The notes under the pieces: model-generated
What the model was told of the DNA's origin: nothing
Databases searched by the model: none
Seen by the model: the letters and a program-made list of their open reading frames with translations, nothing else
Shown: in pieces, positions 7,518 to 53,097 of the stretch
Layout: the number at the start of each line of letters is the position of its first letter
Numbering within the stretch: position 1 is the stretch's first letter
Program-made: the position numbers and the translations under genes
NCBI GenBank assembly: GCA_964649235.1
Contig: CAZYOZ010000003.1
Coordinates: forward strand, 3,670-60,788
Reading direction: 5' to 3'
DNA: 57,119 bases
Origin: an uncultured Candidatus Bathyarchaeia archaeon
GTDB lineage: Archaea > Thermoproteota > Bathyarchaeia > 40CM-2-53-6

Positions 7518-8447
7518 ATGCCTATAGTGTCCCATATCAAACTCAAACGCGGAATGCCCATCTCCGCCGTCGCCAAACAAATGGAAGCCGTAAAAGTACT
7601 AGGCCCAGGCCGCTTCGGCAGAGCGGCGAAAATTCTTGGCGAGATGTTCAGCAACAAGGACTACTGCAACTTCACCTCTCTCGCAGGACCAATAGTCCCC
7701 GGCGGCCTCAGAACAATCATCAGAGACCTCGTAGACAAGAGGTTGTTGCACGGAATAGTAACTACTGGCGCAAACGTCACCCACGACATGCTTGAAGGAC
7801 TAGGCCACAGACACATTGTAGGATCCGAAACGGCAGACGACACCGTGTTAAAACGGAAAGGTCTCTCTAGGATCTACGATCTCCTTGTGAAGCAGAAAGC
7901 CATTGAGAACCTAGAGAAGACAACACACAGAATGCTGAACCGGATACCGGAAGCAAGGCGTCGCAACATCGCAAGTTACGAGTTGCTCTGGGAGTTCGGG
8001 CGCCAACTTGCGGATGAGCAATCGATTCTACGCACATCCCAGAAACGTAGTGTTCCAGTCTTCTGCCCGGGCATTTTTGACTCGATGCTTGGCCTAAACC
8101 TCTGGACATACAGCCAACTCAACCCTCTGTTCATCAACCCCTTCAAAGATTTCTCGAAACTCGTTAACATGGCATATGACGCAAGGAAAGTCGGAGCCAT
8201 TATCCTGGGCGGCGGCATGCCGAAACATCATGTCCTCATAGCAAACTCCTTCAGAGGTGGCTTGGACGCGGCGATCCAAATCACGCTGGACCGGCCCGAG
8301 GGTGGAGGAACAAGCGGCGCACCCCTGGAAGAGGCAATAAGCTGGGGAAAAATCAAGAGCCGCAGGAAAATTGTAACGGTCGTTGCGGATGCGACGGTGG
8401 CATTTCCGTTGCTGGCGTTGGCGGCCCTGGAGAGCGCGGGTAAATAG
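7518..8447 (+). CDS. dys: Deoxyhypusine synthase
   Basis: VTTGANVTHD, IILGGGMPKHH, GGTSGAPLEEAISWGKI, DATVAFPL; adjacent to aIF5A. Confidence 0.95.
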   Translation: MPIVSHIKLKRGMPISAVAKQMEAVKVLGPGRFGRAAKILGEMFSNKDYCNFTSLAGPIVPGGLRTIIRDLVDKRLLHGIVTTGANVTHDMLEGLGHRHIVGSETADDTVLKRKGLSRIYDLLVKQKAIENLEKTTHRMLNRIPEARRRNIASYELLWEFGRQLADEQSILRTSQKRSVPVFCPGIFDSMLGLNLWTYSQLNPLFINPFKDFSKLVNMAYDARKVGAIILGGGMPKHHVLIANSFRGGLDAAIQITLDRPEGGGTSGAPLEEAISWGKIKSRRKIVTVVADATVAFPLLALAALESAGK

Positions 8448-40304: not shown

Positions 40305-41753
40305 ATGATGTACCAGTCTCAGGCAACTTCTGCTCAAAGGCGCTCTCTCTTGAGTTCACTCGAAGAGTATCGGACGCGGATTCATGGAATTGACAAGCAG
40401 CTGCTGGCTCTAATTCAGCAACGACTCGCGCTAGGCAACAAGCTGGCAGAGATCAAGCAATCCCACAGCCTCCCGACCATAGACGCGAACGCTGAAAGCA
40501 TCACAATGGATAATCTCACCAAGACCGCAAAGAGTCTGGGCTTGGAGGTTCCCTTTGCTCGACGATTAGGGGAGCTTTTGATCGAAGAATCTGTAAGAAT
40601 ACAGCAAGATGCTAGGCACGAACAGTCGAAGGACCAGCTCCTGAAAGAGACCTTCGAACTCACGCAACGACTAACCTCAGAAGGCAATAAGGTAACTCGA
40701 TTTGAGATTGGGGAACCGAACTTCCCGGCACCAAAGCAAGTCATCCAGGGCCTTTCTGGCACTTTTCGAAAAAAGAGGATCGTTGGGTACGGGCAGGCGG
40801 CAGGCCTCCCGGCTTTGAGGAAGACTTTGGCTGAGGAGCTGAGTGGCCGGCATGGCACCGAGATCAGTCCGGACCAGATATTGATCACACCCGGTGGCAG
40901 GTTCGCGATCTTCGCAACCGTAACATCCTTTGTTTCGCAACTCGAACGGGTTGTTATTCCTCAGCCAGCCTGGCCGGCCTATGAGGAATGCGTGAATTTT
41001 GCGAAGGGCCGGACAATTCCGATCAACAGCTCATTAGAGGATGCCTGGGAGATTGACTTAGGGAAGCTGGAATCTGAGCTAAGAAAAGGGGCAAGAATGC
41101 TTGTCCTGAACAGCCCAAATAATCCTACCGGCAAAGCCTTCGGACATAAGAAATACGAGGAGATGGTCGACCTCGCAACAAAATATGGTGCTCTTGTCCT
41201 TTCAGACGAAGTGTATGACAGGTACACCAGGACTAAGCCGCCGAGCATACTTGAATGTGAGCACGAGAATTTCGTGTATGTCAACAGTTTCTCGAAGCAG
41301 TTCAGTCTGACAGGGTGGAGGGTAGGCTACTTGGTCACGACAAAGGAAAAGGCGATTCGTATCAGGCGTATTTTACAGACTGCAATTACATGCGTTCCTG
41401 AGTTCATTCAGAACGCGGCTCTCATTGCCATCAAAAAGGCTCGTCGCGATGCACAACGGAATGTGAACACGATTCTCAAGAAAGTTGACCTAACTTGTCG
41501 AGAACTTAGCAAAATTGATGTATCCTTCTACAAGCCCGACGGCACATTCTACGTGTTCCCCAGGGCCAACAAACCCAACTTCGACTCAGTGAAGTTCGCT
41601 AAGCAACTCCTGGATAAGCGGCATGTGAGCATCAGTCCCGGCCAGTCGTTCGGGGATTATCCCGCATTCTTCAGGTTGGCTGTTTCACTGCCGCAGGAAC
41701 AGATTCCGGGCGCCATCAAAGCAATTGGAAGGGCGATAGATTCGTGGCAGTAG
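40305..41753 (+). CDS. Chorismate mutase (AroQ) fused to class I/II PLP aminotransferase
   Basis: LEEYR..I..ID..LL.LI..R...K..D..E..EESVRIQ; GEPNF, NSPNNPTG, SDEVY, NSFSKQFSLTGWRVG; start may be TTG 40350. Confidence 0.9.
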   Translation: MMYQSQATSAQRRSLLSSLEEYRTRIHGIDKQLLALIQQRLALGNKLAEIKQSHSLPTIDANAESITMDNLTKTAKSLGLEVPFARRLGELLIEESVRIQQDARHEQSKDQLLKETFELTQRLTSEGNKVTRFEIGEPNFPAPKQVIQGLSGTFRKKRIVGYGQAAGLPALRKTLAEELSGRHGTEISPDQILITPGGRFAIFATVTSFVSQLERVVIPQPAWPAYEECVNFAKGRTIPINSSLEDAWEIDLGKLESELRKGARMLVLNSPNNPTGKAFGHKKYEEMVDLATKYGALVLSDEVYDRYTRTKPPSILECEHENFVYVNSFSKQFSLTGWRVGYLVTTKEKAIRIRRILQTAITCVPEFIQNAALIAIKKARRDAQRNVNTILKKVDLTCRELSKIDVSFYKPDGTFYVFPRANKPNFDSVKFAKQLLDKRHVSISPGQSFGDYPAFFRLAVSLPQEQIPGAIKAIGRAIDSWQ

Positions 41754-42628
41754 CTTGCGTCATCGGCGGAGCAGGCCGGATGGGAGTATGGTTCGCCAAC
41801 TTCCTAAAACGCAACAGATACAAAGTCATCATTTTTGACAAGAACAATGCTGCAGCTCGGAGAGCAGCCAAAAAGCACGGCTTGAGAATGGCCGCCAATC
41901 GAGCTCAAGCCGTGGAATCTTCCCAACTCGTCCTTCTGGCAACACCGACAAAGGTTACGAGTGAAATACTGCGACAAATTGGGCCACTGATCTCACCTGA
42001 TAAACTGGTCGTCGAAATCTCTTCAGTTAAACAGACTGTCAAAGCAAGAGTCTGCTACATGCTGAGGAAAGGTTTTGCGGTGCTCAGCATCCATCCGATG
42101 TTCGGCCCCGGCGCGAGCCGGCTCACTGGAAAGACCGTTCTAACCATGTCCGAAACCCAGAGAAGCCCACAGGCCAGACGATTCATATCACTGCTCAAAG
42201 AAGCTGGAGCGACAGTGATCAGCTGCCACTTCAATGAACATGATAAACTGGCGTCGTGGCTCTTGACCTTGCCACATTTCATCAGCATAGCATTTGTCAA
42301 CGCACTTAGGTCAACTGGGGCAGAACCGAATGCATTGCATGAAGCAGCAGGCACAACTTTTAGGCTTCAATTTCTCACAGCTGAAGCCGTATGCCAAGAG
42401 GACCTTGGGAATGAGCTATCACTGCTCGCAGACAATGAACGCGCCCTGGAGATCCTAGGACATTTTGAACAGCACGCCAGAGCAATAATGAAGACCATCA
42501 GAAACGGGAGACGCGAGGCACTAATTCGCACGCTACACAACGCACGCAGATATGTTCAGAGAGATAGACTCTTCGCAAGCTCATACGGCCGGTTCAATGC
42601 GGCTGCCGAAGCTTCGAGTCGTGTTTAG
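41744..42628 (+). CDS. tyrA: Prephenate/arogenate dehydrogenase
   Basis: IGGAGRMG.W, EISSVK, SIHPMFGP, EHDK...LTLPH. Confidence 0.9.
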   Translation: MAVACVIGGAGRMGVWFANFLKRNRYKVIIFDKNNAAARRAAKKHGLRMAANRAQAVESSQLVLLATPTKVTSEILRQIGPLISPDKLVVEISSVKQTVKARVCYMLRKGFAVLSIHPMFGPGASRLTGKTVLTMSETQRSPQARRFISLLKEAGATVISCHFNEHDKLASWLLTLPHFISIAFVNALRSTGAEPNALHEAAGTTFRLQFLTAEAVCQEDLGNELSLLADNERALEILGHFEQHARAIMKTIRNGRREALIRTLHNARRYVQRDRLFASSYGRFNAAAEASSRV

Positions 42629-43740
42629 TTCCCGAGGCTTTTCTCACCCAGCACGCGATGAATGAAACCAGCCCTCAGGCAGTGGTCGGCTAAGACAATG
42701 GCGACAGTGGACTCGACTACGGGCACTGCCTTCGGGACTATACATGGGTCATGGCGCCCTGTAGCTTGTACTGAAGTCTCTTCCATCTCCCGCAGGTTCA
42801 CTGTCCGCTGCTCCTTCGGAATCGACGAAGGCGGCTTGAATCCGACATGAACAATAATCGGCATGCCGGTCGACAGCCCGCCTAGAATTCCGCCTGCATT
42901 ATTGGTCAGAGTCACGATCCTGCTTTCGCGCACGGTGAAGGGATCATTGTTCTCTGAGCCTCTCACAGCACTTGCTCCGAATCCTAACCCGACCTCGAAG
43001 CCTTTGACTGCGGGAATGCTGAAAGCTATCTTGGCCAAATCCGCGTCCAAGCTGTCAAAGAACGGGTCGCCTATGCCTGGTGGGATGCCCTCAGCGATGC
43101 ACTCTACGATTCCACCCACACTGTCGCCCTCACTTCGCGCTTTGAGTATTGCCTCACGCATTTTCTCCGCCGTCTTGGGATCCGCGCAACGAACCGAATT
43201 TGTGTAAGCGTTGTTCTTTATGACATCGTGCGCTAGTTGCAGGTCCAGCTTGACGGTGTGAATTTGGATCGTATGCGCGAAGATTTCGATTCCGAATCGC
43301 CGCAGTAGCTTCTTGGCAACGGCACCTGCCATGATGAGCGGGACTGTCATTCTCCCGCTGGACCTTCCTCCGCCCCTGAAATCGTTGAAATTGCCATATT
43401 TCACACGTGTCGGAAAATCTGCATGCCCCGGCCTGGCCACAAATTTGAATTTCTCATAGTCCTGCGACCGAACATCTTTGTTCCATGTGACCATGGCGAT
43501 GGGCGCGCCCGTCGTGTAGCCCTCGAAGACTCCTGAGAGAATCTGAACTTCGTCCTTCTCTCTGCGCGTCGACGTCATGGTCGGGTCTGGTGGCATTCTG
43601 CGTTCCAGTTCTGCCTGAATGTCTCCGGTGCCCAGTTGCAAGCCAGCGGGGCATCCGTCGACGACCGCCGCGACCGTTGGACCGTGGCTCTCGCCGAAAA
43701 CGTTCACGCAGAATTCTTTCCCGAAAGAACTATCACCCAA
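42625..43740 (-). CDS. aroC: Chorismate synthase
   Basis: FGESHG, RPGHAD, RGGGRSSGR, NNAGGILGG, GRHDPC. Confidence 0.97.
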   Translation of the reverse strand: MGDSSFGKEFCVNVFGESHGPTVAAVVDGCPAGLQLGTGDIQAELERRMPPDPTMTSTRREKDEVQILSGVFEGYTTGAPIAMVTWNKDVRSQDYEKFKFVARPGHADFPTRVKYGNFNDFRGGGRSSGRMTVPLIMAGAVAKKLLRRFGIEIFAHTIQIHTVKLDLQLAHDVIKNNAYTNSVRCADPKTAEKMREAILKARSEGDSVGGIVECIAEGIPPGIGDPFFDSLDADLAKIAFSIPAVKGFEVGLGFGASAVRGSENNDPFTVRESRIVTLTNNAGGILGGLSTGMPIIVHVGFKPPSSIPKEQRTVNLREMEETSVQATGRHDPCIVPKAVPVVESTVAIVLADHCLRAGFIHRVLGEKSLGN

Positions 43741-45001
43741 TTACCTCGACTCCAAGTGACCTTAGGTCGTCAAAAAAGTTCGGGTAGGATTTGCTGACAC
43801 ATTCAGCACCTTCAATGGTGACCTTGTCTGAAGTTCCCAATGCGGCGATGCTGAGCGCCATAGCCACTCTGTGATCGCCATGGGCACGAACAACTCCTCC
43901 ACTCAAGAAAGAAGGACCACGCGTTACAAACCCATCATCAGTCTCTTTAACGTCCGCACCGAGTCCCTTCAGTTCAGATGTAACCGTCGCGAGCCGATCG
44001 GATTCCTTGTACCTCAGCCTCAAAGCCCCAGTGACTCTGCTTTCGCCCTCCGCGCAGCAACCCAACACTGCAAGCACGGGCCCCAGATCCGGGCTGTCGC
44101 GTATGTCCACTACAGTGCTTTTCAGCTTGCCACCTTCTATGAGAAGACCATCGTCTTCGACTGTGATGTGCGCCCCCATCTGGCGCAGGATTCCAATTAC
44201 TGCCGAATCAGGCTCGGGGCTGTTTGGAGAAAGGCCATGCACAATGACCTTTGAGCTTGTGATTGCTGCTGCTGCGAGTAGGAAAGCAGCTGACGAGAAG
44301 TCTCCACCAATCCTATGACTGGACGTGCTGTACCTTTGCCCCTTTTTGATCTCGAACTCTGTCATGCTGCGATTTGCTCGAACAGTAGTTCCATGTTTTC
44401 GCATGGTCTCAATTGTCAGCGAGGCGTAGCTTCTGGATTCCAAGGGCGAAGTACTCTCAAGCCGTAGTCCATTCTCCATCAGAGGACCCGCAAAGAGGAG
44501 ACCCGATATGAACTGCGAACTCACATCTCCACGAATGCGAACAACGCCGCCTCTCGGCGCTCCTCCTTCGATTCTAACGGTCTCCTGATCTGCGGCGACA
44601 TTGACATCGAGCTGTTTCATGGCATCGGCCAGGGGCTCAAGCGGTCTTCGCGCCAAACCTGCACTAACCCTAAAGGTGGTTTTCGAGCCGGTTAGCGAAG
44701 CTATTGGAATCATGAATCGCAACGTGACCCCGGATTCCCGGCAGTTGATTTCGCCATCTGCGGGTTGCGGCCGACCTCTGCCGTCTACTGTCCATGCAGT
44801 TCTGTTCTTAGTTAGTTTCCCTCCGAGCGCGGACACGGCCGAAGCTGTGGCCTCCGTATCATCGCATGAGAGAGGGTTGATGATGATGGTCGTGCCCTCC
44901 GAAAGAAGGCCCGCGACGAGTGCGCGATGAGTCTGGGCTTTGGAAGACGGGGCAGTAATTTCGCCAGTCAATGAGCGGGTCGGTGTTATGGTCACTTTCA
45001 A
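43733..45001 (-). CDS. aroA: EPSP synthase
   Basis: PSSKAQTHR, ESGVTLRF, SSQFISGLL, DFSSA, LRYKESDR, DHRVAM, KSYPNF; TTG start overlaps aroK stop. Confidence 0.96.
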   Translation of the reverse strand: MKVTITPTRSLTGEITAPSSKAQTHRALVAGLLSEGTTIIINPLSCDDTEATASAVSALGGKLTKNRTAWTVDGRGRPQPADGEINCRESGVTLRFMIPIASLTGSKTTFRVSAGLARRPLEPLADAMKQLDVNVAADQETVRIEGGAPRGGVVRIRGDVSSQFISGLLFAGPLMENGLRLESTSPLESRSYASLTIETMRKHGTTVRANRSMTEFEIKKGQRYSTSSHRIGGDFSSAAFLLAAAAITSSKVIVHGLSPNSPEPDSAVIGILRQMGAHITVEDDGLLIEGGKLKSTVVDIRDSPDLGPVLAVLGCCAEGESRVTGALRLRYKESDRLATVTSELKGLGADVKETDDGFVTRGPSFLSGGVVRAHGDHRVAMALSIAALGTSDKVTIEGAECVSKSYPNFFDDLRSLGVEVIG

Positions 45002-45879
45002 CTTGCTAAGACCAGTCCTGCGTGTGCTTTCCTGTGGTTGACTGAGGTTTCGATGACTCTTCCGGAAAGCCTTCTCCACACGGAGGTGATGTCACGCACC
45101 TTTGGGTGTGGCACGATGGCAGCCGTAGAGGGACCTTTGCCTGAAATCCCGGCAGCAACTGCCCCGGCCTCGATGGCCTGAGTTGCTGGAGAAATGTCGT
45201 AACCTAGAGCCAGCGAGTAGAAAAGACCGTTGAGTGTGAGCGAATACCAGTAGTTACCCCTTAACGCTTCTCGGTGTGCAATTGCCACTACCGGCCTGAT
45301 GCCGCTGAGCTGGTCGGGATCGACATCCTTTGTGTATTTCTTCTGCTTGGGCACGTGAATGAGTACGCGGAGCGAACCTTTCGGACTGAACCTTCCGAGG
45401 ACCCGCCGGTTCCTGTTGTCGGTCACTACGAGGCCTCCGAAGTAACACGCGTATGCATCATCGAAAGCACCTGTCAGTGTGACACCCGCTTCCAGGCTGG
45501 CGTCAACTCCTAATCTCACGGCTTCAAGGTCGCTTACTTTCTTTCCCAATGCTCTCAAGGTGGCTAGGATGATCGCGTTGCTGGCCGAACTGCTGCTCTT
45601 GAGCCCTGCTGCGACTGGAATGTTCGAACTAGTTTCTACGTGAGCCCCAAGCCGGTGGACATTGAATCTCCGAAATACTCGACGAACGCTAGCTTCTATG
45701 AGTTCGTTTCCCCCTCTAGGTTCGGTCAGGTTTTGCCCGCTGATTCTTCCAGCTTGCTCCGTGATGGTTACCCGCGCTTTTGTGCAGAGGCCAACGCCCA
45801 ATGCTGCCCCCATGCCTGTGGCCATAGCGTTCACCACAGTCACGGCCCCGTAGCTCACGGCCTCAGCTACTCTCTGCAT
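44998..45879 (-). CDS. aroK: Archaeal shikimate kinase (GHMP family)
   Basis: GAVTVVNAMATG.GAA, GLKSSSSASNA, TGAFDD, SGKGP. Confidence 0.95.
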   Translation of the reverse strand: MQRVAEAVSYGAVTVVNAMATGMGAALGVGLCTKARVTITEQAGRISGQNLTEPRGGNELIEASVRRVFRRFNVHRLGAHVETSSNIPVAAGLKSSSSASNAIILATLRALGKKVSDLEAVRLGVDASLEAGVTLTGAFDDAYACYFGGLVVTDNRNRRVLGRFSPKGSLRVLIHVPKQKKYTKDVDPDQLSGIRPVVAIAHREALRGNYWYSLTLNGLFYSLALGYDISPATQAIEAGAVAAGISGKGPSTAAIVPHPKVRDITSVWRRLSGRVIETSVNHRKAHAGLVLAS

Positions 45880-46750
45880 GAGCCATCAGCGGCAACTTCC
45901 GTGCAATTGCCCTCCGCATCTCATGCAACGGGGCCTGCCGCCCAAACCAGAGTTCGAAGGAGCAGGCAGCTTGATGCACCAGCTGGTCTAGGCCGTTGAC
46001 CGTTCTGGCGCCCGCGAGCTTGGCCTCTCTAAGCAGCCGCGTTTCTTGAGGCCTGTAGACTAGTTCAAACACGCATTGACTGGCCCGAAGAGATTTCTCA
46101 GTGATGGGTGGGTCGGCCTTTCCGTCCATTCCCATCGAAGACGCATTCACGATGACGTCGGCCTCTTCGATGTACCGACTGAGAGACTTACGCGAGAGTT
46201 GGGCACTCGCAATGTCCTTAGGAAATTTCGCGCGTAGGCGTCGTTCGAGCTGCTTTGCCCTAGAGAACGTTCGGTTGATGATCCGCATAGACTTCACTTG
46301 AGGCGCGAAAGCGTAGGCAAGCGCCCGCGCTGAGCCTCCGGCCCCCAGCAACAGGACAGTCTTTCCGTCGATCCCCACTCCAGCCTCACCTAGAGCTTTA
46401 AGCGCACCTAGGCCGTCAGTGCTGTATCCATACAGTATCCCATTTCTGTTGGCCACTGTGTTGACAGAGCCCATCTCTGACGCCTTGCGATCGAGTTCGT
46501 CAAGAAACCTCATAACAGGTATTTTGTGTGGTAAGGTGACGTTGAACCCCCTGACGCCCAAAGCGCGAAGACCCTGGATTGCTGATTTCAGAGTCCCCGG
46601 TTTCACATGGAAAGGCACGTAGACTGCGTCGAGACCCTGTGCCTGGAAAGCAGCGTTTTGGATAGCAGGGCTCAGTGAATGGTCTACTGGGTCTCCTATG
46701 ACCCCATAGAGTGCAGTCTTCCCAGAGATGCTGGCGCTATTGTATTCCAA
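45863..46750 (-). CDS. aroE: Shikimate dehydrogenase
   Basis: GDPVDHSLSP, NVTLPHK, SVNTV, TDG.G, GAGGSARA, GL..LV.QA. Confidence 0.95.
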   Translation of the reverse strand: MEYNSASISGKTALYGVIGDPVDHSLSPAIQNAAFQAQGLDAVYVPFHVKPGTLKSAIQGLRALGVRGFNVTLPHKIPVMRFLDELDRKASEMGSVNTVANRNGILYGYSTDGLGALKALGEAGVGIDGKTVLLLGAGGSARALAYAFAPQVKSMRIINRTFSRAKQLERRLRAKFPKDIASAQLSRKSLSRYIEEADVIVNASSMGMDGKADPPITEKSLRASQCVFELVYRPQETRLLREAKLAGARTVNGLDQLVHQAACSFELWFGRQAPLHEMRRAIARKLPLMAHAESS

Positions 46751-47399
46751 GTATACGCCACGCAGTCCTGAGGTCATCTATGGTGATCTGACCTAGCGCG
46801 GTTTCGGATTGATCATCCAAGGCCGCGTATGTGAATTGGGCGCCAAAGAGAGGTGATAGAATTCTGGAAGGGACACCGAGCGAACCCATCGCAAAAGAAA
46901 CGAGCCTCGTCTCCCTAGATCTCTCAGAGACGAAACGCAATATCGTCAGGTTGTCCTCTGGATGTTTGGCGGTTGTGACTATTTTGCAGACATCCCCGCC
47001 TACTTGTCTCTCAAAATCGAGGATTTTGCTCATTTCGAGAAGGGACGGCGTTCGGTTAGAATCGTGAAAGGAAACCACCGTCTGAGCTCCATTCGACTTC
47101 AGCTGCTCGATCAACGAAATTGCAACTTCATTAGCGCTGTTTACGTCGACGAATTCGAAATCGGACGTAGCTGCTGTCAAGAGTAGCTTCTTGATCACTG
47201 ACGCCTCTCGTTCTGCCTTGTCGGTGGCTATCGCTGGAAATCGTTTCTCGTGGCCTACCTTCTCGATAATGCTGAAATCCTGTACATTGTCAAACCTGAA
47301 CTCGACGAGGTCTGGCTGCTTCTTTGAGACCTGCTCGATGAGCTCCCCCACATCATCGTCATCCTTGATCATGACGGAAAGGCAGACTCTGACGTTCAG
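46737..47399 (-). CDS. aroD: Type I 3-dehydroquinate dehydratase
   Basis: VEFRFD, VVSFHD..RTP, KIVTTA, AMG..G..SRIL.P.FG..TYA, GQ; N-terminal VRVCLSV strand requires CTG start at 47399 overlapping the upstream TGA. Confidence 0.92.
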   Translation of the reverse strand: MNVRVCLSVMIKDDDDVGELIEQVSKKQPDLVEFRFDNVQDFSIIEKVGHEKRFPAIATDKAEREASVIKKLLLTAATSDFEFVDVNSANEVAISLIEQLKSNGAQTVVSFHDSNRTPSLLEMSKILDFERQVGGDVCKIVTTAKHPEDNLTILRFVSERSRETRLVSFAMGSLGVPSRILSPLFGAQFTYAALDDQSETALGQITIDDLRTAWRILGIQ

Positions 47400-48454
47400 C
47401 GTTCAATCACCATTTCATCTGCCACTAGCGTTCCGAAATGCCTGCCGCCTTCCTCGACCCTGACTAGGACTTGGTCACCTGGCTTCAGTTCTGAAACTGA
47501 CTTGGACCCGCTACCCGACAGAAGCCGGACAGTCTCGGCGTTCTGCACTATGATTGAGAATAACCGCCCGTCTGCTTCTGCTTCGATAAGCATCATAGGC
47601 CTGCGTTCGATTTTTACCCTCCCAACATGCCCTGACCTGGCTGCTCCAGAATGATTTACGATCAAGACTTCGTCGCCCGCCTTCAGTTCTGAAAGGTACC
47701 TTGTCTTGGTGCCCGGGGTCAGAACATAAGAGGAAACAGGCCCGGCGTTGACCCGGAACGGCCTAGGTTCCACGTGTGGGTTTCTGTGAACCTCCGCCTC
47801 GATTAGGAATAGGCCTGATGATTGCGAACCCACAAGCATACCTTCTCCAGGCTGCATCAGTTCGCATGTGTCAACGCAGACTCTTGCGCCTGTTCCAATC
47901 GGCTTTGCGACGACGACGTTTGCCTTCCCGAGGGGTATCTTCCCTTCAAACTGTTTGAGAAATTGGTCCACTTGTTCGATCTCGTTGGAGTTTTTGGGAG
48001 AAATTACGATGCCGTCAACTCCTAGCTCAAGTGTTTGCAGGGCAGTTCTTGCTTCGGTCAGGCCTGTGACCTCGGCCAGAAGTGTGGTCTTGTTTCTTGT
48101 CTGGGCAATGAGGTTCTCGAGGGGAATCACTTTCCAGTTTGGACATTGAACAATGATGTATCGGATGCCCGCCTCTGCGAGTTGTAGTGCTCTCTGTTCA
48201 TCGGAAGCGTCCTTCACGATTAATTCCGCAGCGGTTTCTCCGGAGAATTGGGTTTCACTTAGGTTTCTATTGGATACCACTCTAATTTCGGCACGCTCAT
48301 CGGAAGAAACCGTCTTCAACTTCAGACTGGACGCTAGCTTGATGTCGTCAGGCGCAAGCAGAACAGCTGAGCAGCGACCATCAGCCGCCTTAAGTAGTTC
48401 CACCTTGTGGTTTGCAGGCGCGGCAGAGTCCAGTCTAAGCCAGAGTTGTTTCAT
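47396..48454 (-). CDS. aroB': 3-dehydroquinate synthase II (archaeal AroB')
   Basis: WKVIPLENLIA, LELGVDG, RVCVDTC, RPFRVNAG, GRVKIERRP, QNAETVRL, GRHFG. Confidence 0.95.
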   Translation of the reverse strand: MKQLWLRLDSAAPANHKVELLKAADGRCSAVLLAPDDIKLASSLKLKTVSSDERAEIRVVSNRNLSETQFSGETAAELIVKDASDEQRALQLAEAGIRYIIVQCPNWKVIPLENLIAQTRNKTTLLAEVTGLTEARTALQTLELGVDGIVISPKNSNEIEQVDQFLKQFEGKIPLGKANVVVAKPIGTGARVCVDTCELMQPGEGMLVGSQSSGLFLIEAEVHRNPHVEPRPFRVNAGPVSSYVLTPGTKTRYLSELKAGDEVLIVNHSGAARSGHVGRVKIERRPMMLIEAEADGRLFSIIVQNAETVRLLSGSGSKSVSELKPGDQVLVRVEEGGRHFGTLVADEMVIER

Positions 48455-48459
48455 TTCAG

Positions 48460-49248
48460 TCAGCCCAGAATCTTGGCAGCGTCTTGTGCGCTCTTTCCCT
48501 GGTGGACGATTGCGGCCAGCGCCTTAGTCATTGACTCCGGATCTTTGTGCTGGAACACGTTTCGGCCGAAAGATAGGCCAGCTGCTCCCGCCTTCACCGA
48601 GTTCTCTGCAAGCTCCAGAACATCCAAGTCAGTCTTCATCTTCGGTCCTCCGGCAACCACGACCGGGACGGGGCAACCTCGCACTACTTGGCGGAAGGTC
48701 TCGAGGTCTCCTGTGTAGTTGGTTTTGACGATGTCGGCTCCGAGCTCAGCTCCGATTCTGGCGGCGTGAGATACAACTTCGAGTTCATGTTCGCTCTTTA
48801 TGCTGGGACCGCGCGGGTACATCATGGCAAGGAGAGGCATTCCGTAGGAGTCACATTCTTCAGAAAGTGCGCCGAGGAATTGGAGCATTTGGTCCTCTTC
48901 TTGAGCTCCGATGTTGATGTGAGCTGAGACAGCGTCAGCACCGAGCTTGATTCCCTCTTCAACGGTGCAGACGCCGACTTTCAGGTTTGGCTTTGCCCCA
49001 AGCTTTGTGGATGCTGACACGTGAACGATTAGCCCGGCGTTCTGACAGTCGATGTGCCTGGCGATGCCCTTGTGGACCAGAACAGCATCTGCGCCGCCAC
49101 TCACAACGCGTTTGACGGTGCTCTGCATGTCCTCAAGGCCCTGAACCGGCCCTATTGAGACGCCGTGGTCCATTGCGATAATGAAAGTCTTCGAATCGCT
49201 CCTGATGATTCTTCTGAGTCGTCTAGTCTTCCCAGTTTCCAAAATCAA
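48460..49248 (-). CDS. aroA': 2-amino-3,7-dideoxy-D-threo-hept-6-ulosonate synthase (AroA', class I aldolase family)
   Basis: MDHGVSIGP..GL, AMMYPRG, ELGADIVKTNY, AGGPK, GRNVFQ; adjacent to aroB'. Confidence 0.9.
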   Translation of the reverse strand: MILETGKTRRLRRIIRSDSKTFIIAMDHGVSIGPVQGLEDMQSTVKRVVSGGADAVLVHKGIARHIDCQNAGLIVHVSASTKLGAKPNLKVGVCTVEEGIKLGADAVSAHINIGAQEEDQMLQFLGALSEECDSYGMPLLAMMYPRGPSIKSEHELEVVSHAARIGAELGADIVKTNYTGDLETFRQVVRGCPVPVVVAGGPKMKTDLDVLELAENSVKAGAAGLSFGRNVFQHKDPESMTKALAAIVHQGKSAQDAAKILG

Positions 49249-49254
49249 TCACCG

Positions 49255-50286
49255 TCACAAGTACCCTTCCGCTTTCATCGACTCCGCGATAAGGATAGCA
49301 CATCCGGCTGCCCCGCGTACTGTGTTATGCCCGAGAGCTAGGAACTTCACGCCGTCGAAGACAGGATCGCGTCGTACCCGGCCCACGACAACAGACATTC
49401 CTCCGCCCTCGTTCCGGTCAAAACGAGGTTGAGGCCGGTCCTGTTCTGCTCTGACGACTACGGGTCGTTCGGGGGCCGAAGGCAATTTGAGTTTCTGAGG
49501 TTCCGCAACGAAGTTGGCCATGCATCCGGCGACCTCTTCGGGCGTTGCTGGTTTCTCGGTCTGGACGAAGATTGCTTCCGAGTGACCGTCTATCACTGGG
49601 ACGCGGTGGCAGCTCGCGGATACCTTGAAACCTGCTGGGGTTCCGGCCGTACCAAGAATTTTCTTGGTTTCACGTTCGACCTTCTCCTCTTCGTCCTTGA
49701 TGAACGGAATGATGTTGTCGATGATATCGAGGGACGCGACGCCAGGGTATCCAGCTCCTGAAGCTGCCTGCATCGATGACATAATGACATTCTTGACCCC
49801 GAAGCCATCGCAGAGTGGTTTCAGTGATAATGTGAGAACGGCGGTTGTACAGTTTGGGTCGGTAACTAGGGCTCCGTCCCATTTCCGTTTTCTCCGTTGC
49901 ACATCAATCAATGACAGATGCTCGAAGTTCGCCTCGGGATTCATGAGCGGGACGTCTGCCTCCATCCTGTGTGCTGAGGCATTGCTGACAACAGCGTAGC
50001 CTGCGCTTGCGAATTCCTCTTCTATTCGAAGTGCCTGTTCGGCGGGCAACGCGGAGAAAACCACGTCAGCATCTAGCTCCTTTGGAGCTGATGGGCGGAC
50101 CGTCAATTGAGCGAGTTTGCTTTTCAAGGGAGTCTCCATGCGCCAGCTGACAGCCTTACCATACTCCATGCCGGCACTTCTCTCGGAGCCCGTGATGGCT
50201 GAGATCTCAAACCATGGATGGTCGTTCAGCATCTGGACGAAGCGCTGGCCGACCAGCCCCGTTGCACCTAGAATAGCTGCTTTCAT
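49255..50286 (-). CDS. asd: Aspartate-semialdehyde dehydrogenase
   Basis: LGATGLVGQ, SNASAHRM, PNCTT, QAASGAG, RVPVIDGH, HNTVRGAAG. Confidence 0.97.
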   Translation of the reverse strand: MKAAILGATGLVGQRFVQMLNDHPWFEISAITGSERSAGMEYGKAVSWRMETPLKSKLAQLTVRPSAPKELDADVVFSALPAEQALRIEEEFASAGYAVVSNASAHRMEADVPLMNPEANFEHLSLIDVQRRKRKWDGALVTDPNCTTAVLTLSLKPLCDGFGVKNVIMSSMQAASGAGYPGVASLDIIDNIIPFIKDEEEKVERETKKILGTAGTPAGFKVSASCHRVPVIDGHSEAIFVQTEKPATPEEVAGCMANFVAEPQKLKLPSAPERPVVVRAEQDRPQPRFDRNEGGGMSVVVGRVRRDPVFDGVKFLALGHNTVRGAAGCAILIAESMKAEGYL

Positions 50287-50287
50287 C

Positions 50288-51655
50288 TCACAGCCCTTCT
50301 CTCACGGCTTGTTTGATCAGGTCAGCGGCCTGTTCCTTCTCGTCCCATGAAACGAAGACGAGAATACTCGAAGCCAGGGTTAGCATGCCATAGATGTTGA
50401 TCTCACTCTCCCTCAGCCGGTCCGAGATTCTCCCGATAATCCCAGGGGTGTCCTCGAGCCCGACACCTTTCACCTTTAGGAAAGCCAAGTTGGGCTGCAC
50501 GGCCATAGCAAGCGCCTCACCAAAGTTCCTAATGGTGGCATGAATGGATGACAGAACTGAGTTCGAAGCACCTTGGGGCATGTAGAAGATAACGGAATCA
50601 AAATTCGCCGATAGCCCCTGTAGTATAGAATGATTCCTGATCTCTGTGACCAAGCCCGCCAAGATTGCGGGATTTTCGGAGATACCTTTGCCTGCTACGG
50701 TAACAGCCATCGACGGAGTGCTGCCTTCGAAGGTGACCTCCAGCTCGCTGGAAATTCCACCGGTTATGATTGTTCCGTCGGCTTCTAAATCGTCCTTCTG
50801 ATTGCTAATTACTCTGACAGGGATGTTAGCGTCTTTGTATCTCAAGGCCTTCCTATGAATGAACTTCGTCCCCGAATCCGCAAGCCCGATCAGAGTCCTC
50901 ACATCGATCCTGTCGAGTTTTCTCGCATTCGGAACATATCGAGGATCAGCTGTCAGGATTCCTTCAGCATCACTTACAAGAACAACCTCATCCGCGCCAA
51001 TGGCCTTGGCGATGATAAACGCCGTGGTGTCGCTTCCTCCTCGCCCGATTGTGGTGACCTTGCTGTCAGCGGATTTCCCAACAAACCCTGCAATTACGGG
51101 GACCGTCCCCCAATCCAAGAGCGGAACAACATGCTCCTGAACTTTCCGAACGCACAATTCCATGATCGGGTTCGCGTTCGAGAACTGCCCGTCTGTGATG
51201 ATCGGCCACTCTTTATCGGACGGGTCAAAGTATTTCACGTCAAGCCCTGCGGATTTCAAGGCGGCGGCAAAAACCCTGACGCTCGTTCTTTCCCCCATCG
51301 CCAGTACATCGTCAAGGTCCGTTTTGTCAAGACCTCTTCCGGCAGTGTTGTTCACCAGGCCGAGCAGTTGGTCTGTCATCTTTCCCATTGCGGATACGAC
51401 GACGACAAGCTTCGTGCCTCTCGCGTTCTCTTTCGCTATCAGCTGTGTTGCTTTAGCGATACGATCTTTGTCGGCGAGGCTGGATCCGCCGAACTTGACA
51501 ACTAACCTGCGGTGCCTATGCCCCGATGCAGTGCACGGTGCTGGCTTGGAAGTAGTCTGGATTGTTGTGGTCGCAGAAATGTCAGTTGATGGCTTCTGGG
51601 GTGTGGACGATCCACCAGTGATCACCGTAAACGTGACCACCGAAAACTTTACCAC
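50288..51655 (-). CDS. lysC: Aspartate kinase with Thr/Ser-rich N-terminal extension
   Basis: VVKFGGSS, VVSAMG, GER, GRGGSDTTA, C-terminal ACT domains; no in-frame ATG before the catalytic core, only GTGs at 51655/51640/51625. Confidence 0.93.
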   Translation of the reverse strand: MVKFSVVTFTVITGGSSTPQKPSTDISATTTIQTTSKPAPCTASGHRHRRLVVKFGGSSLADKDRIAKATQLIAKENARGTKLVVVVSAMGKMTDQLLGLVNNTAGRGLDKTDLDDVLAMGERTSVRVFAAALKSAGLDVKYFDPSDKEWPIITDGQFSNANPIMELCVRKVQEHVVPLLDWGTVPVIAGFVGKSADSKVTTIGRGGSDTTAFIIAKAIGADEVVLVSDAEGILTADPRYVPNARKLDRIDVRTLIGLADSGTKFIHRKALRYKDANIPVRVISNQKDDLEADGTIITGGISSELEVTFEGSTPSMAVTVAGKGISENPAILAGLVTEIRNHSILQGLSANFDSVIFYMPQGASNSVLSSIHATIRNFGEALAMAVQPNLAFLKVKGVGLEDTPGIIGRISDRLRESEINIYGMLTLASSILVFVSWDEKEQAADLIKQAVREGL

Positions 51656-51695
51656 CTGTCTGGCTCACGTGGCACCCCTCAGTAACCCACGGCAT
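51582..51695 (-). promoter_or_regulatory. Putative aromatic amino acid-sensing leader ORF (MPWVTEGCHVSQTGGKVFGGHVYGDHWWIVHTPEAIN*) overlapping the lysC start; alternative start GTG 51668
   Basis: Hand-translated 37-codon ORF ending TGA at 51584-51582; GAGGGGTG SD before GTG 51668; sits at the head of the aro operon. Confidence 0.6.
51612..51656 (-). repeat. Three imperfect 15-nt tandem repeats GGTGGTAAAGTTTTC / GGTGGTCACGTTTAC / GGTGATCACTGGTGG
   Basis: Read directly from the minus strand; encode GGKVF/GGHVY/GDHWW in the leader frame. Confidence 0.8.
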
Positions 51696-51709
51696 CGTAC
51701 TGATGTTGG

Positions 51710-51717
51710 TTAAAAAG
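51710..51717 (-). promoter_or_regulatory. Putative TATA box of the lysC-asd-aro operon
   Basis: CTTTTTAA on the minus strand about 42 nt upstream of leader GTG 51668. Confidence 0.5.
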
Positions 51718-51758
51718 GTTCCCTGACAGGCCAACAGAAAGATGCATCGAATTTCGAC

Positions 51759-52451
51759 TTACATGCCAACGTATAGGCGTTCTGCCAGAAAGCTGGGAAG
51801 ACCTGCTGCAGTAATTTTGCGCGCGGCGGAATCGACATCGTAGCCGGTGCGATGAATTTCGAATGCCATTTTTGGCCCTGAAATGTTCAAGATAGCGAAG
51901 CTCGCACGCGCGTCCCCGTCCCTGGGTTGACCGACACTTCCTGGATTGCCTAACAACTGGCTTTGAAACCAGTAGGCCATGGGCATGTGAGTATGGCCTA
52001 GAAGCACGAGTGGAGCCTTGGCTTGCTTGATCAGCCACTTGGCAATTTGGTCAGGTATTCCCGGAAAAACGTATTCGGATAGTGGATCCCTTGGGCTTCC
52101 GTGGAACAGGGCTAGCGCGAAACCTCCGAGCTCCAACTTTGCCGAAGCTTTTAGCTTTGAAAGATATCGCAAGTTCTCCTCGGTGATCTTGCGCCTCGTC
52201 CACTCCACTGCTTCCGCTGCATGCTCAGAAAAGCCCGACGTGTCACCGGTAACGACTGCATAGTCGTGATTGCCCATCAGCACAGTGGTGGGACAAAGAT
52301 CAAGTAGCTGCTTCACGACTTCGTTTGGTTGCGGTCCGTAGCCTACCACGTCTCCTAGACAAAGGAGAGCGTCATGTGGAGGAAGTTTTTCGATCACAGC
52401 GCGAAAAGCGTCTAGGTTCGAGTGTATGTCTGAGATGACTGCTATTCTCAA
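51759..52451 (-). CDS. Metallophosphoesterase (YfcE/MJ0936 family)
   Basis: SDIHSN, LGDVVGYG, GNHD, HGSP, GHTH, NPGSVGQPRDG. Confidence 0.93.
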   Translation of the reverse strand: MRIAVISDIHSNLDAFRAVIEKLPPHDALLCLGDVVGYGPQPNEVVKQLLDLCPTTVLMGNHDYAVVTGDTSGFSEHAAEAVEWTRRKITEENLRYLSKLKASAKLELGGFALALFHGSPRDPLSEYVFPGIPDQIAKWLIKQAKAPLVLLGHTHMPMAYWFQSQLLGNPGSVGQPRDGDARASFAILNISGPKMAFEIHRTGYDVDSAARKITAAGLPSFLAERLYVGM

Positions 52452-52500: not shown

Positions 52501-53097
52501 CTAGAGCTCCAAGTCGACCTGTTCGGCATAGGATAGGTCTTCGCCGCAGTAGGGGCATAGCTTGAACTTTCTGTCAACTTGTTTGCCGCATTCTGGGCAT
52601 TCAATCTTCAGGGCATAACCGCAGAAAGGACACATGGAAAAGTCATCGGAAACCCTGTGCCCACACTTCTTGCATTGAAGTTCCCCGTCAGGGCCAGCAT
52701 GAGATGGCCTTTCGGGGGTCTGTATGATAACGGGATATGGTTGCGCGGAATGCGAAGCTGAGGCTCGAATGATGTTTTCACGAATGATCCTGTGCAGCTG
52801 GTAGGCGTCTTTCTTGCTCAGGTTTCCTATGCGTATGTTCTGGATTCCTGACCGCATGAGAATCTCAACGCTGGCTTTGCGCAGGCCTCGGTCGAGTTTG
52901 ATGTTCAGCATGTTTGCGTAAGGGTAGTCGACGAAGCTTTTCTTGAGTCCGAGGCCGCTGGACTTGCATATGATTAGGCGCTGGTCGCTCACGACTATGG
53001 TTTCGTCCGTTTTGAGGGCCCAGATGACTTTCTCATCGTAATTGATTAGGTGGCGCATGTCCTCCGGAAGCAATGCCAAGCGTGGAGCCTCAGCCAC
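52501..53097 (-). CDS. Bacterial-type PH domain + double zinc ribbon protein
   Basis: DEKVIW..IVVSDQRLII.K..GL....VDYPY.N bPH-like pattern; four CxxC pairs at the C-terminus. Confidence 0.75.
   Translation of the reverse strand: MAEAPRLALLPEDMRHLINYDEKVIWALKTDETIVVSDQRLIICKSSGLGLKKSFVDYPYANMLNIKLDRGLRKASVEILMRSGIQNIRIGNLSKKDAYQLHRIIRENIIRASASHSAQPYPVIIQTPERPSHAGPDGELQCKKCGHRVSDDFSMCPFCGYALKIECPECGKQVDRKFKLCPYCGEDLSYAEQVDLEL

Follow-up and report, generated by a model that had tools for sequence, protein, structure and literature searches.

A dual-frame aromatic leader before the lysC-asd-aro operon of Bathyarchaeia, a candidate site of +1 frameshifting

The leader, lysC and the aromatic operon

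The gene for aspartate kinase, lysC, is overlapped at its 5' end by a short open reading frame (ORF) that contains three tandem repeats in the window analysed here, a stretch of 57,119 nucleotides from an uncultured Candidatus Bathyarchaeia archaeon (assembly GCA_964649235.1, contig CAZYOZ010000003.1, positions 3,670 to 60,788). Unless stated otherwise, the features described lie on the minus strand and coordinates are those of the window. The short ORF, which we call the leader, comprises 28 codons and a stop (51582..51668, translation MSQTGGKVFGGHVYGDHWWIVHTPEAIN*). It begins with GTG at 51668 and ends with TGA at 51584-51582, and a Shine-Dalgarno (SD) sequence, GAGGGGTG, lies 4 nucleotides before the start (51673..51680). 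The leader frame reads GTG AGC CAG ACA, three units of 15 nucleotides, ten further codons and TGA. Unit 1 is GGTGGT-AAA-GTT-TTC, with a Phe codon (51642..51656); unit 2 is GGTGGT-CAC-GTT-TAC, with a Tyr codon (51627..51641); unit 3 is GGTGAT-CAC-TGG-TGG (51612..51626), which carries Trp codons and has no NTT-T. Tandem Repeats Finder (TRF) reports a period of 15 and 2.6 copies. A preliminary description of the locus had written out the same three repeats, and the minus-strand sequence from 51656 to 51612 agrees with it letter for letter. It had also called the hexamers SD-like, and GGTGATC is indeed a 7-nucleotide complement of the 16S rRNA 3' end.

Phe, Tyr or Trp accounts for 5 of the 28 leader codons. 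The slippery tetranucleotide GTT-T occurs twice, in units 1 and 2, and the codons that would occupy the ribosomal aminoacyl (A) site after each spacer and peptidyl (P) site codon are TTC, TAC and TGG, none of them a stop. GGT is the rarest Gly codon in use (16%), yet all five Gly codons of the leader are GGT.

The lysC frame is +1 relative to the leader frame. It is closed upstream by a TGA (51665..51667) that overlaps the leader start as GTGA, and NTGA is frequent at the leader starts of relatives. From its first GTG, lysC extends over 50288..51655 and encodes an aspartate kinase with AA_kinase and ACT domains (PF00696, 1.5e-49, 169 bits; PF13840). The Pfam AA_kinase match begins at LysC residue 50; the 48 codons at the 5' end (51512..51655) form an N-terminal extension, or bridging segment, that opens with a hydrophobic VVKFSVVTFTVITGG and continues as a variable linker rich in Ser, Thr and Pro. 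Three in-frame GTG codons lie in this segment, each inside a GGTG (51655-53, 51640-38 and 51625-23). Before the kinase core, RRLVVKFGGSS, the lysC frame has no ATG, nor any ATG, GTG or TTG beyond these three.

Eight genes follow lysC with intergenic gaps or overlaps that are mostly 1-8 nucleotides, over 42625..50286. They are asd (49255-50286), a class I aldolase of the DeoC/LacD type (48460-49248, PF01791) that we infer to be an ADH synthase-like enzyme, DHQS-II (3-dehydroquinate synthase II; 47396-48454, PF01959, 372 bits), aroD (46737-47372), aroE (45863-46777), a GHMP-type shikimate kinase (44998-45879), EPSP synthase (43733-45079) and chorismate synthase (42625-43740); asd and the last five were assigned by Pfam. 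No DAHP synthase (PF00793, PF01474) was found in the 88%-complete genome. In the archaeal route, aspartate semialdehyde is a precursor of dehydroquinate (PMC4162585). The locus has the marks of the aspartate-semialdehyde/6-deoxy-5-ketofructose 1-phosphate (DKFP) route, in that DHQ synthase II and a class I aldolase are present and no DAHP synthase was found. The operon is accordingly annotated as making chorismate from aspartate semialdehyde, with LysC as the predicted first enzyme of the aromatic pathway. Because this kinase would open that pathway, a leader with Phe, Tyr and Trp codons is to be expected, and the tie to Phe and Tyr drawn in the preliminary description makes biological sense: lysC feeds an aromatic pathway that depends on aspartate semialdehyde.

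Congeners carry a second aspartate kinase elsewhere in the genome, about 30% identical. Across relatives, asd and/or the aldolase follows lysC in 28 of 30. The aldolase stands directly after lysC, with no asd between, at L011-L014, L016, L017, L023, L024, L026 and L027. Operon order varies while the link between leader and lysC is kept. Divergent from the aro operon, on the plus strand at 40305-42628, are a chorismate mutase-aminotransferase fusion (CM_2 + Aminotran_1_2, 482 aa) and prephenate dehydrogenase; since these adjoin the operon, the whole Phe/Tyr branch is clustered.

A putative archaeal B recognition element (BRE) and TATA box (..GGGAACCTTTTTAACC..) lies upstream of the leader at 51708..51726. 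Its block GAGGAAYTCTTTTAAG is conserved among 19 aligned relatives, and the block probably acts as a promoter from which transcription would start about 25 nucleotides downstream. An in-frame ATG at 51695 is an alternative leader start. We also considered a conserved ATGC about 25 nucleotides past the TATA-like box as a leaderless start and rejected it: in two relatives (L003, L004) its frame stops 2-3 codons on, and the SD-led start is preferred for that reason. Searches of the whole window found no Rfam family at gathering thresholds and, with ARAGORN, no tRNA, so that a known riboswitch or T-box is unsupported. The upstream neighbours are genes for a metallophosphoesterase (51759-52451), whose stop lies about 40 nucleotides before the TATA-like box of the leader, and a PH-domain/double zinc-ribbon protein (52501-53097).

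Conservation among relatives

To place the leader in a wider context we gathered 128 lysC upstream regions, 116 of them distinct; the relatives are metagenome-assembled genomes (MAGs) of Bathyarchaeia. At least one strict unit, GGTGNN-NNN-NTT-T[AT]Y, is present in 57 of the 116 distinct regions. Another 38 have a leader of a second kind, a short ORF with 7-11 aromatic residues per 12-residue window (FFDFFYYYFYFE, FGYYFYYYFN, NPYYYYYYYCFF and FYGYYYFYY are examples). These leaders with runs of Phe, Tyr and Trp (F/Y/W-run leaders) end 70-100 nucleotides before the kinase core, and lysC there has its own ATG. The 21 regions with neither kind of leader include two genomes of family f3, which have relaxed hexamers, several loci with 5-6 aromatics, and distant or bacterial kinases. 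In all, 95 of 116 relatives have an aromatic leader in one of two architectures, and an aromatic leader before the lysC operon is therefore the rule in the order.

Nucleotide conservation was followed in a genus alignment of 24 distinct sequences, 23 from the genus itself and one (L020) from family f2. Unit 2 is universally conserved: its first GGT and the TT-TA of NTT-TAY are invariant (24/24), with A in 15 sequences, G in 6 and C in 3 at the first base of NTT, and with TAC (14) or TAT (10) as the Tyr codon. The second GTG of the lysC frame is likewise invariant (24/24), and the TGG of unit 3 is kept in 19. At conserved columns the leader start codon switches between ATG, GTG and TTG; the stop falls in a single codon column in 22 of the 24, as TAA (9), TGA (7) or TAG (6). 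A G-rich, SD-like block stands 4-8 nucleotides 5' of the leader start in relatives. Outside the genus the element takes simpler or altered forms. In the sister genus one unit is present, ATG GGT GGT CAT CTT TAC TGG, and ATGGGTGGTCATCTTTAC is identical in 17 of its 18 distinct loci. Family f2 has ATG GGT GAY nnn CTT TTC GGT GAT GGC GTT TAC, with AGGTGA 5-8 nucleotides upstream, and relatives in f3 have AGGGAT or GGCGRT as the hexamer. CTT, GTT, ATT and TTT are all found as P-site codons across families. The preliminary description had proposed a comparison of GTT-T, its spacing and its phase, and the outcome is positive: NTT-TAY is kept in every sequence of the genus alignment, in the sister genus and in two further families.

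Could conservation of the peptide alone produce such a pattern? Long ORFs of the genome contain 84 occurrences of the peptide motif G[GD]x[IVL][FY], of which 17 use GGT, 17 have a T-ending [IVL] codon and 4 have the full geometry. Selection at the peptide level is not enough to explain the geometry of the units. Nor are the units a chance match: over both strands of the 3.07-Mb genome, GGTGRY-NNN-NTT-TWY turns up as a single unit 9 times, and units in tandem are found only in the lysC leader and in one loose match, described below.

In 54 of the 57 regions with a unit, the +1 frame is the lysC frame and is open to the core. The +1 phase of lysC and the missing ATG before its core, both stated in the preliminary description, are correct and strongly conserved in relatives. 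The linker between the units and the core is poorly conserved and rich in Ser, Thr and Pro, and its indels are multiples of 3. At L017/L037 (genome G006), a 1-nucleotide indel near the core puts the lysC extension out of frame, and at L018 (G013) the extension is out of frame with the core and contains 2 TGA codons; these could be assembly errors or real breaks.

Four relatives from three lineages are unfused (L019 and L029 within f3, L022 and L139 within f2). In each, the +1 ORF runs through 47-64 codons of AT-rich sequence without a stop (shuffle P 0.025-0.055 each), and it ends at the lysC start as TAA-AC-ATG, TAA-AC-TTG or TAA-GT-TTG, or 12 nucleotides after the lysC ATG. The +2 frame of the same relatives closes after 2-17 codons. 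Termination and reinitiation can be coupled at overlapping stop and start codons (ATGA or TTGA), and the unfused relatives resemble such systems in where the +1 ORF stops, on the start of the regulated gene or beside it: a stop adjoining or overlapping the downstream start is found in L019, L029 and L022, as well as at cysS (see below). The window itself needs no reinitiation, because its bridging ORF is fused in frame to lysC. Whether by fusion or by stop-start coupling, translation in the +1 frame that begins inside the units thus leads to lysC. As far as comparison of sequences can show it, the leader in frame 0 is a genuine small ORF that carries a cognate codon, and frame +1 is a genuine path of translation to the gene.

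A second element upstream of cysS

The loose match in the whole-genome scan for tandem units proved to be a leader before cysS. It begins ATG GGT GGA CGT GTT TGC and encodes MGGRVCDEAQFATSD*. The element occupies L162:352-469 on the plus strand (G000 contig C5, about 8250-8370), and cysS lies at L162:466-1899; its product matches Pfam tRNA-synt_1e with 400 bits. The +1 ORF of this leader, 37 codons long, ends in a TGA that shares bases with the TTG start of cysS (TTGA).

The cysS element is conserved in all 20 congeners, as M-G-x-x-[VIL]-C in the peptide (M-R-V-H-V-C in L179) and as ATG/TTG-GGTGNN-NNN-NTT-TGY in the nucleotides (with CGTGTT as the hexamer of L179). Four of these leaders have six codons, MGVRVC* in L176-L178 and MRVHVC* in L179. 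In 10 of the 20 the +1 ORF has its stop at the aligned cysS start and in 9 more at most 22 nucleotides away, while the +1 ORF of L167 is fused with cysS. In 12 of the 20 a single codon precedes the stop of the +2 frame. For the four loci that were scored, shuffling gives the +1 ORF a P of 0.25-0.39; because these tests are not significant singly, the argument at cysS rests on the position of the stop and on conservation. None of 10 loci from outside the genus had the element.

A conserved AGATTAATTAGAT box is found about 40 nucleotides upstream of the cysS leader. Most members of the genus also have a second, shorter cysS-like gene (about 410 aa, about 45-48% identical), which in G000 lies at C10:14285-15502 and has one in-frame TAA.

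One nucleotide architecture thus carries Cys for CysRS and Phe and Tyr for the aromatic operon, and an independent cysS leader with its Cys codon in the unit geometry strengthens the proposal, on sequence grounds, that the units are sites of frameshifting. A looser scan of the genome, for a start codon followed by GGNGNN-NNN-NTT-TNN, returned 77 matches, which is about the number expected by chance; 15 were inspected, and all were in ordinary genes or had no coherent downstream gene. Judged by these scans, the lysC and cysS elements are the two that stand.

Candidate mechanisms

The repeats are best explained as the sensor within an aromatic amino-acid leader that serves the lysC-asd-aro operon of Bathyarchaeia. 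How the sensing would work is less certain. The leading hypothesis, to which we give about an even chance, is +1 frameshifting at hungry codons. When Phe-tRNA or Tyr-tRNA is scarce, the ribosome would pause with NUU in its P site and an empty codon starting with U in its A site; the P-site tRNA would then slip +1 onto UUU, and the ribosome would go on in the lysC frame. The shifted ribosome would make an aspartate kinase with a disordered N-terminal tail and would drive the tightly packed downstream genes by coupling. With amino acids plentiful, the ribosome would complete the leader and stop 10 codons after the Trp codons. On this model, only frame 0 would read the cognate codon, and only the +1 frame would lead to the gene. 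An NUU-U slip requires a cognate codon that starts with U, and the codons of all three aromatic amino acids and of Cys do so.

Frameshifting would jointly explain why UU-U is invariant, why the hexamer keeps its position and why the cognate codons start with U. It would also account for the six-codon leaders, for the sign of the regulation and for the +1 ORF start, whose candidate position differs between congeners (a GTG at codon 9 in L019, an ATG at codon 2 in L029). As to the sign, the hungry codon is codon 6 in the sister genus, in f2, in f3 and at cysS. A ribosome stalled there would sit over the leader start as well as over the GTG 4 nucleotides past it, and separate initiation at the GTG would consequently fall, not rise, in starvation.

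Known +1 frameshifting offers a partial precedent. The gene for release factor 2 (RF2), prfB, has a programmed +1 site, AGGGGG-NNN-CTT-TGA-C (10.1101/2024.09.24.614795). The units share with it an SD-like hexamer, a spacer of 3 nucleotides, NUU, a slow A-site codon starting with U and a product in the +1 frame, and variants with CUU-U and with UUU-U are present both here and in prfB (10.1101/2024.09.24.614795). The two differ in that the A-site codon here is a sense codon (Phe, Tyr or Cys), whereas prfB has UGA-C, and in that the factor sensed here would be an aminoacyl-tRNA and not RF2. AUU and GUU are common P-site codons here, up to 3 sites stand in tandem, the host is an archaeon and an in-frame GTG is present. 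The lysC element is not a member of the prfB family, because the defining A-site stop codon is missing. Hungry-codon frameshifting as described by Gallant, and the CUU-AGG-C of Ty1, are laboratory or mobile-element phenomena, unlike the conserved element described here. According to the relevant parts of a 2016 review of frameshifting, nature is not known to provide a trans-frame protein whose production serves starvation (PMC5009743), and a 2021 review of archaeal recoding mentions, in its sections on the subject, a single -1 event among the cellular genes of archaea and none in the +1 direction. A literature search that did not cover subscription journals and supplements found no paper on archaeal amino-acid leader peptides or on the lysC/cysS element.

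Several observations weigh against frameshifting. The 16S rRNA 3' end of three congeners reads ...GGATCACCTCCT, and GGUGAU pairs with it 4 positions deeper than the AGGGGG of prfB does. The effective SD spacing here would then be about 7 nucleotides, against 3 in prfB, and so nearer to an initiation complex than to the strained complex of prfB; because GGUGRU pairs 4 nucleotides deeper in the anti-Shine-Dalgarno (anti-SD) sequence, the short, strained spacing of the prfB type is not reproduced. By base-pair reasoning, a tRNA that reads AUU or GUU would retain only two of its three pairs after moving onto UUU. In 9 of the 24 aligned sequences unit 1 is non-slippery, with AAT, AAC or GAC before TTC, and two further sequences lack its TTC. 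The Trp unit is never slippery; the preliminary description had already remarked that this repeat fits slippage less well, and unit 3 lacks NTT-T. The single +1 ORFs are of modest improbability by shuffling (0.025-0.055 for the lysC bridges, 0.25-0.39 at cysS). Finally, other starts are available. A GTG in the +1 frame is present at every unit-bearing locus, at lysC and at cysS alike, and L179 keeps its +1 GTG at cysS even with CGTGTT as its hexamer. L048 has an ATG at the position of the first GTG, and TTT-ATG follows the slip site in 10 of the 24 sequences. With these starts at hand, a shift is not formally required. Ten members of the genus (L006, L008-L013, L015, L016 and L018) moreover have TTG or ATG 8-13 codons before KFGG, which could start the core independently.

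The availability of these starts leads to a rival account, a form of which the preliminary description had raised as its alternative, in which the two overlapping ORFs are initiated separately: lysC, or the bridging ORF, would start at the GTG inside GGTG, and the leader would compete with it or occlude it. We regard this as possible, though rather unlikely. Beyond the universal GTG and the ATG of L048, it gains from the genus, where the previous hexamer lies 10 nucleotides upstream of each GTG and could be its SD. Simple stalling at a hungry codon gives this account the wrong sign, since a ribosome at codon 6 would cover both starts; to obtain the right one, the leader peptide would have to stall when aromatics or Cys abound, much as TnaC or the fungal arginine attenuator does, and the stalled ribosome would block the overlapped start or act as a roadblock. 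A model of arrest at termination would need the leader stop to stay in place, as it does in 22 of 24 sequences. The six-codon leaders (L176-L179), however, are very short for an arrest peptide, and the GTG stands 4 nucleotides after a better-placed ATG that uses the same SD. Nor does peptide function explain the repetition of the units and their conservation at synonymous sites (GGT and NTT; 4 of 84 in the control), and the related F/Y-run leaders are of the hungry-codon type.

A second rival takes its model from attenuation. Leader-peptide attenuators control amino-acid operons in bacteria (pheL, trpL, thrL), and control of the pheST type acts on a tRNA synthetase. The elements described here resemble them in having a short upstream ORF enriched in codons for the end products of the pathway, or for the amino acid of the synthetase, and the SD, start and stop of this ORF are conserved. 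They differ in that no terminator/antiterminator pair was found here, the leader overlaps the structural frame, there are only 2-4 cognate codons, each in a fixed nucleotide context, and the domain is Archaea. If attenuation here is based on structure, the position of the ribosome would switch RNA pairings that mask or unmask a start, either between the leader SD and a downstream CACC-rich mimic of the anti-SD or in a GUGGUCAC/GUGAUCAC hairpin, and the +1 phase and UU-U would be by-products of dual coding. We consider this improbable.

The evidence for such pairings differs between lineages. In f2, the leader SD (GGCAGGTG and variants) pairs with CACCTGCC inside the leader, about 25-30 nucleotides after the Tyr codon, in a predicted helix of 8 bp, and 3 of its pairs are changed on both sides among 9 sequences (f2 including L020, L130-L134 and L137). 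The genus has a local hairpin of 9 bp between two palindromic blocks of hexamer plus spacer, with 94% of cells paired. This hairpin could explain part of the nucleotide conservation, which is a further point against frameshifting, but it shows no compensatory change and is absent in the one-unit sister genus and at cysS. The long-range helix of the genus, between the leader SD and CACCCC, is 65% paired, shows no covariation and is not above shuffles, and for the two genus helices together 84 of 500 shuffles reach the observed percentage paired. The leader of the window folds no better than shuffles (z = -0.78). There is no terminator-like site on the gene strand (minus) in a scan that models bacterial terminators only, and structure-based attenuation leaves the bridging +1 ORFs unexplained. 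In other families the stop of an F/Y-run leader is followed by a conserved GCCCAG...CUGGGC hairpin and then by GGAGGG, as SD, and ATG. The loci with this hairpin, 60-100 nucleotides upstream of the lysC ATG, are L056, L059, L060, L063 and L073 (metagenome). The combination looks like a classical translational attenuator, unlike the unit type.

That no regulation is involved, lysC merely having a long N-terminal extension started at GTG and the small ORF being an untranslated by-product, is hardly credible: amino-acid conservation over the repeats is similar in both frames, as this view would allow, but the leader comes with a conserved SD of its own, its start codon switches and its stop codon does so at a fixed column, 95 of 116 relatives have an aromatic leader, in one of two architectures, before lysC, unfused relatives have the leader as an ORF apart, and the cysS leader carries Cys.

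The observation in the preliminary description is confirmed, and its interpretation is partly supported, now as the leading hypothesis on broad comparative evidence. Of its proposal of hungry-codon frameshifting, the geometry, the +1 phase and the conserved lack of an ATG stood; the likeness to prfB turned out to be linear only. If frameshifting is the mechanism, and we judge the chances to be evenly balanced, the elements could be described as "frameshift attenuators" of Bathyarchaeia, in which the leader is minimal, with a start, an SD-like GGUGNN, 3 nucleotides, NUU and one cognate codon starting with U, the ribosome itself is the sensor and, for want of the cognate aminoacyl-tRNA, a +1 slip leads into a fused or coupled bridging ORF for the lysC operon and for cysS.

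Control of amino-acid genes by leader peptides is a textbook bacterial mechanism that relies on hairpin terminators. Here a compact, conserved, dual-frame element precedes two unrelated genes, and each copy has the matching codon. There is a practical consequence for annotation, in that these lysC genes are called with N-terminal extensions of 45-50 residues and the leaders are not called at all. If true, the proposed mechanism would be a first on three counts: as gene control by hungry-codon frameshifting in nature, as a programmed +1 frameshift in a cellular gene of an archaeon, and as amino-acid control through a leader peptide in Archaea. The element would show how tRNA charging can be coupled to gene expression in organisms without Rho-independent terminators.

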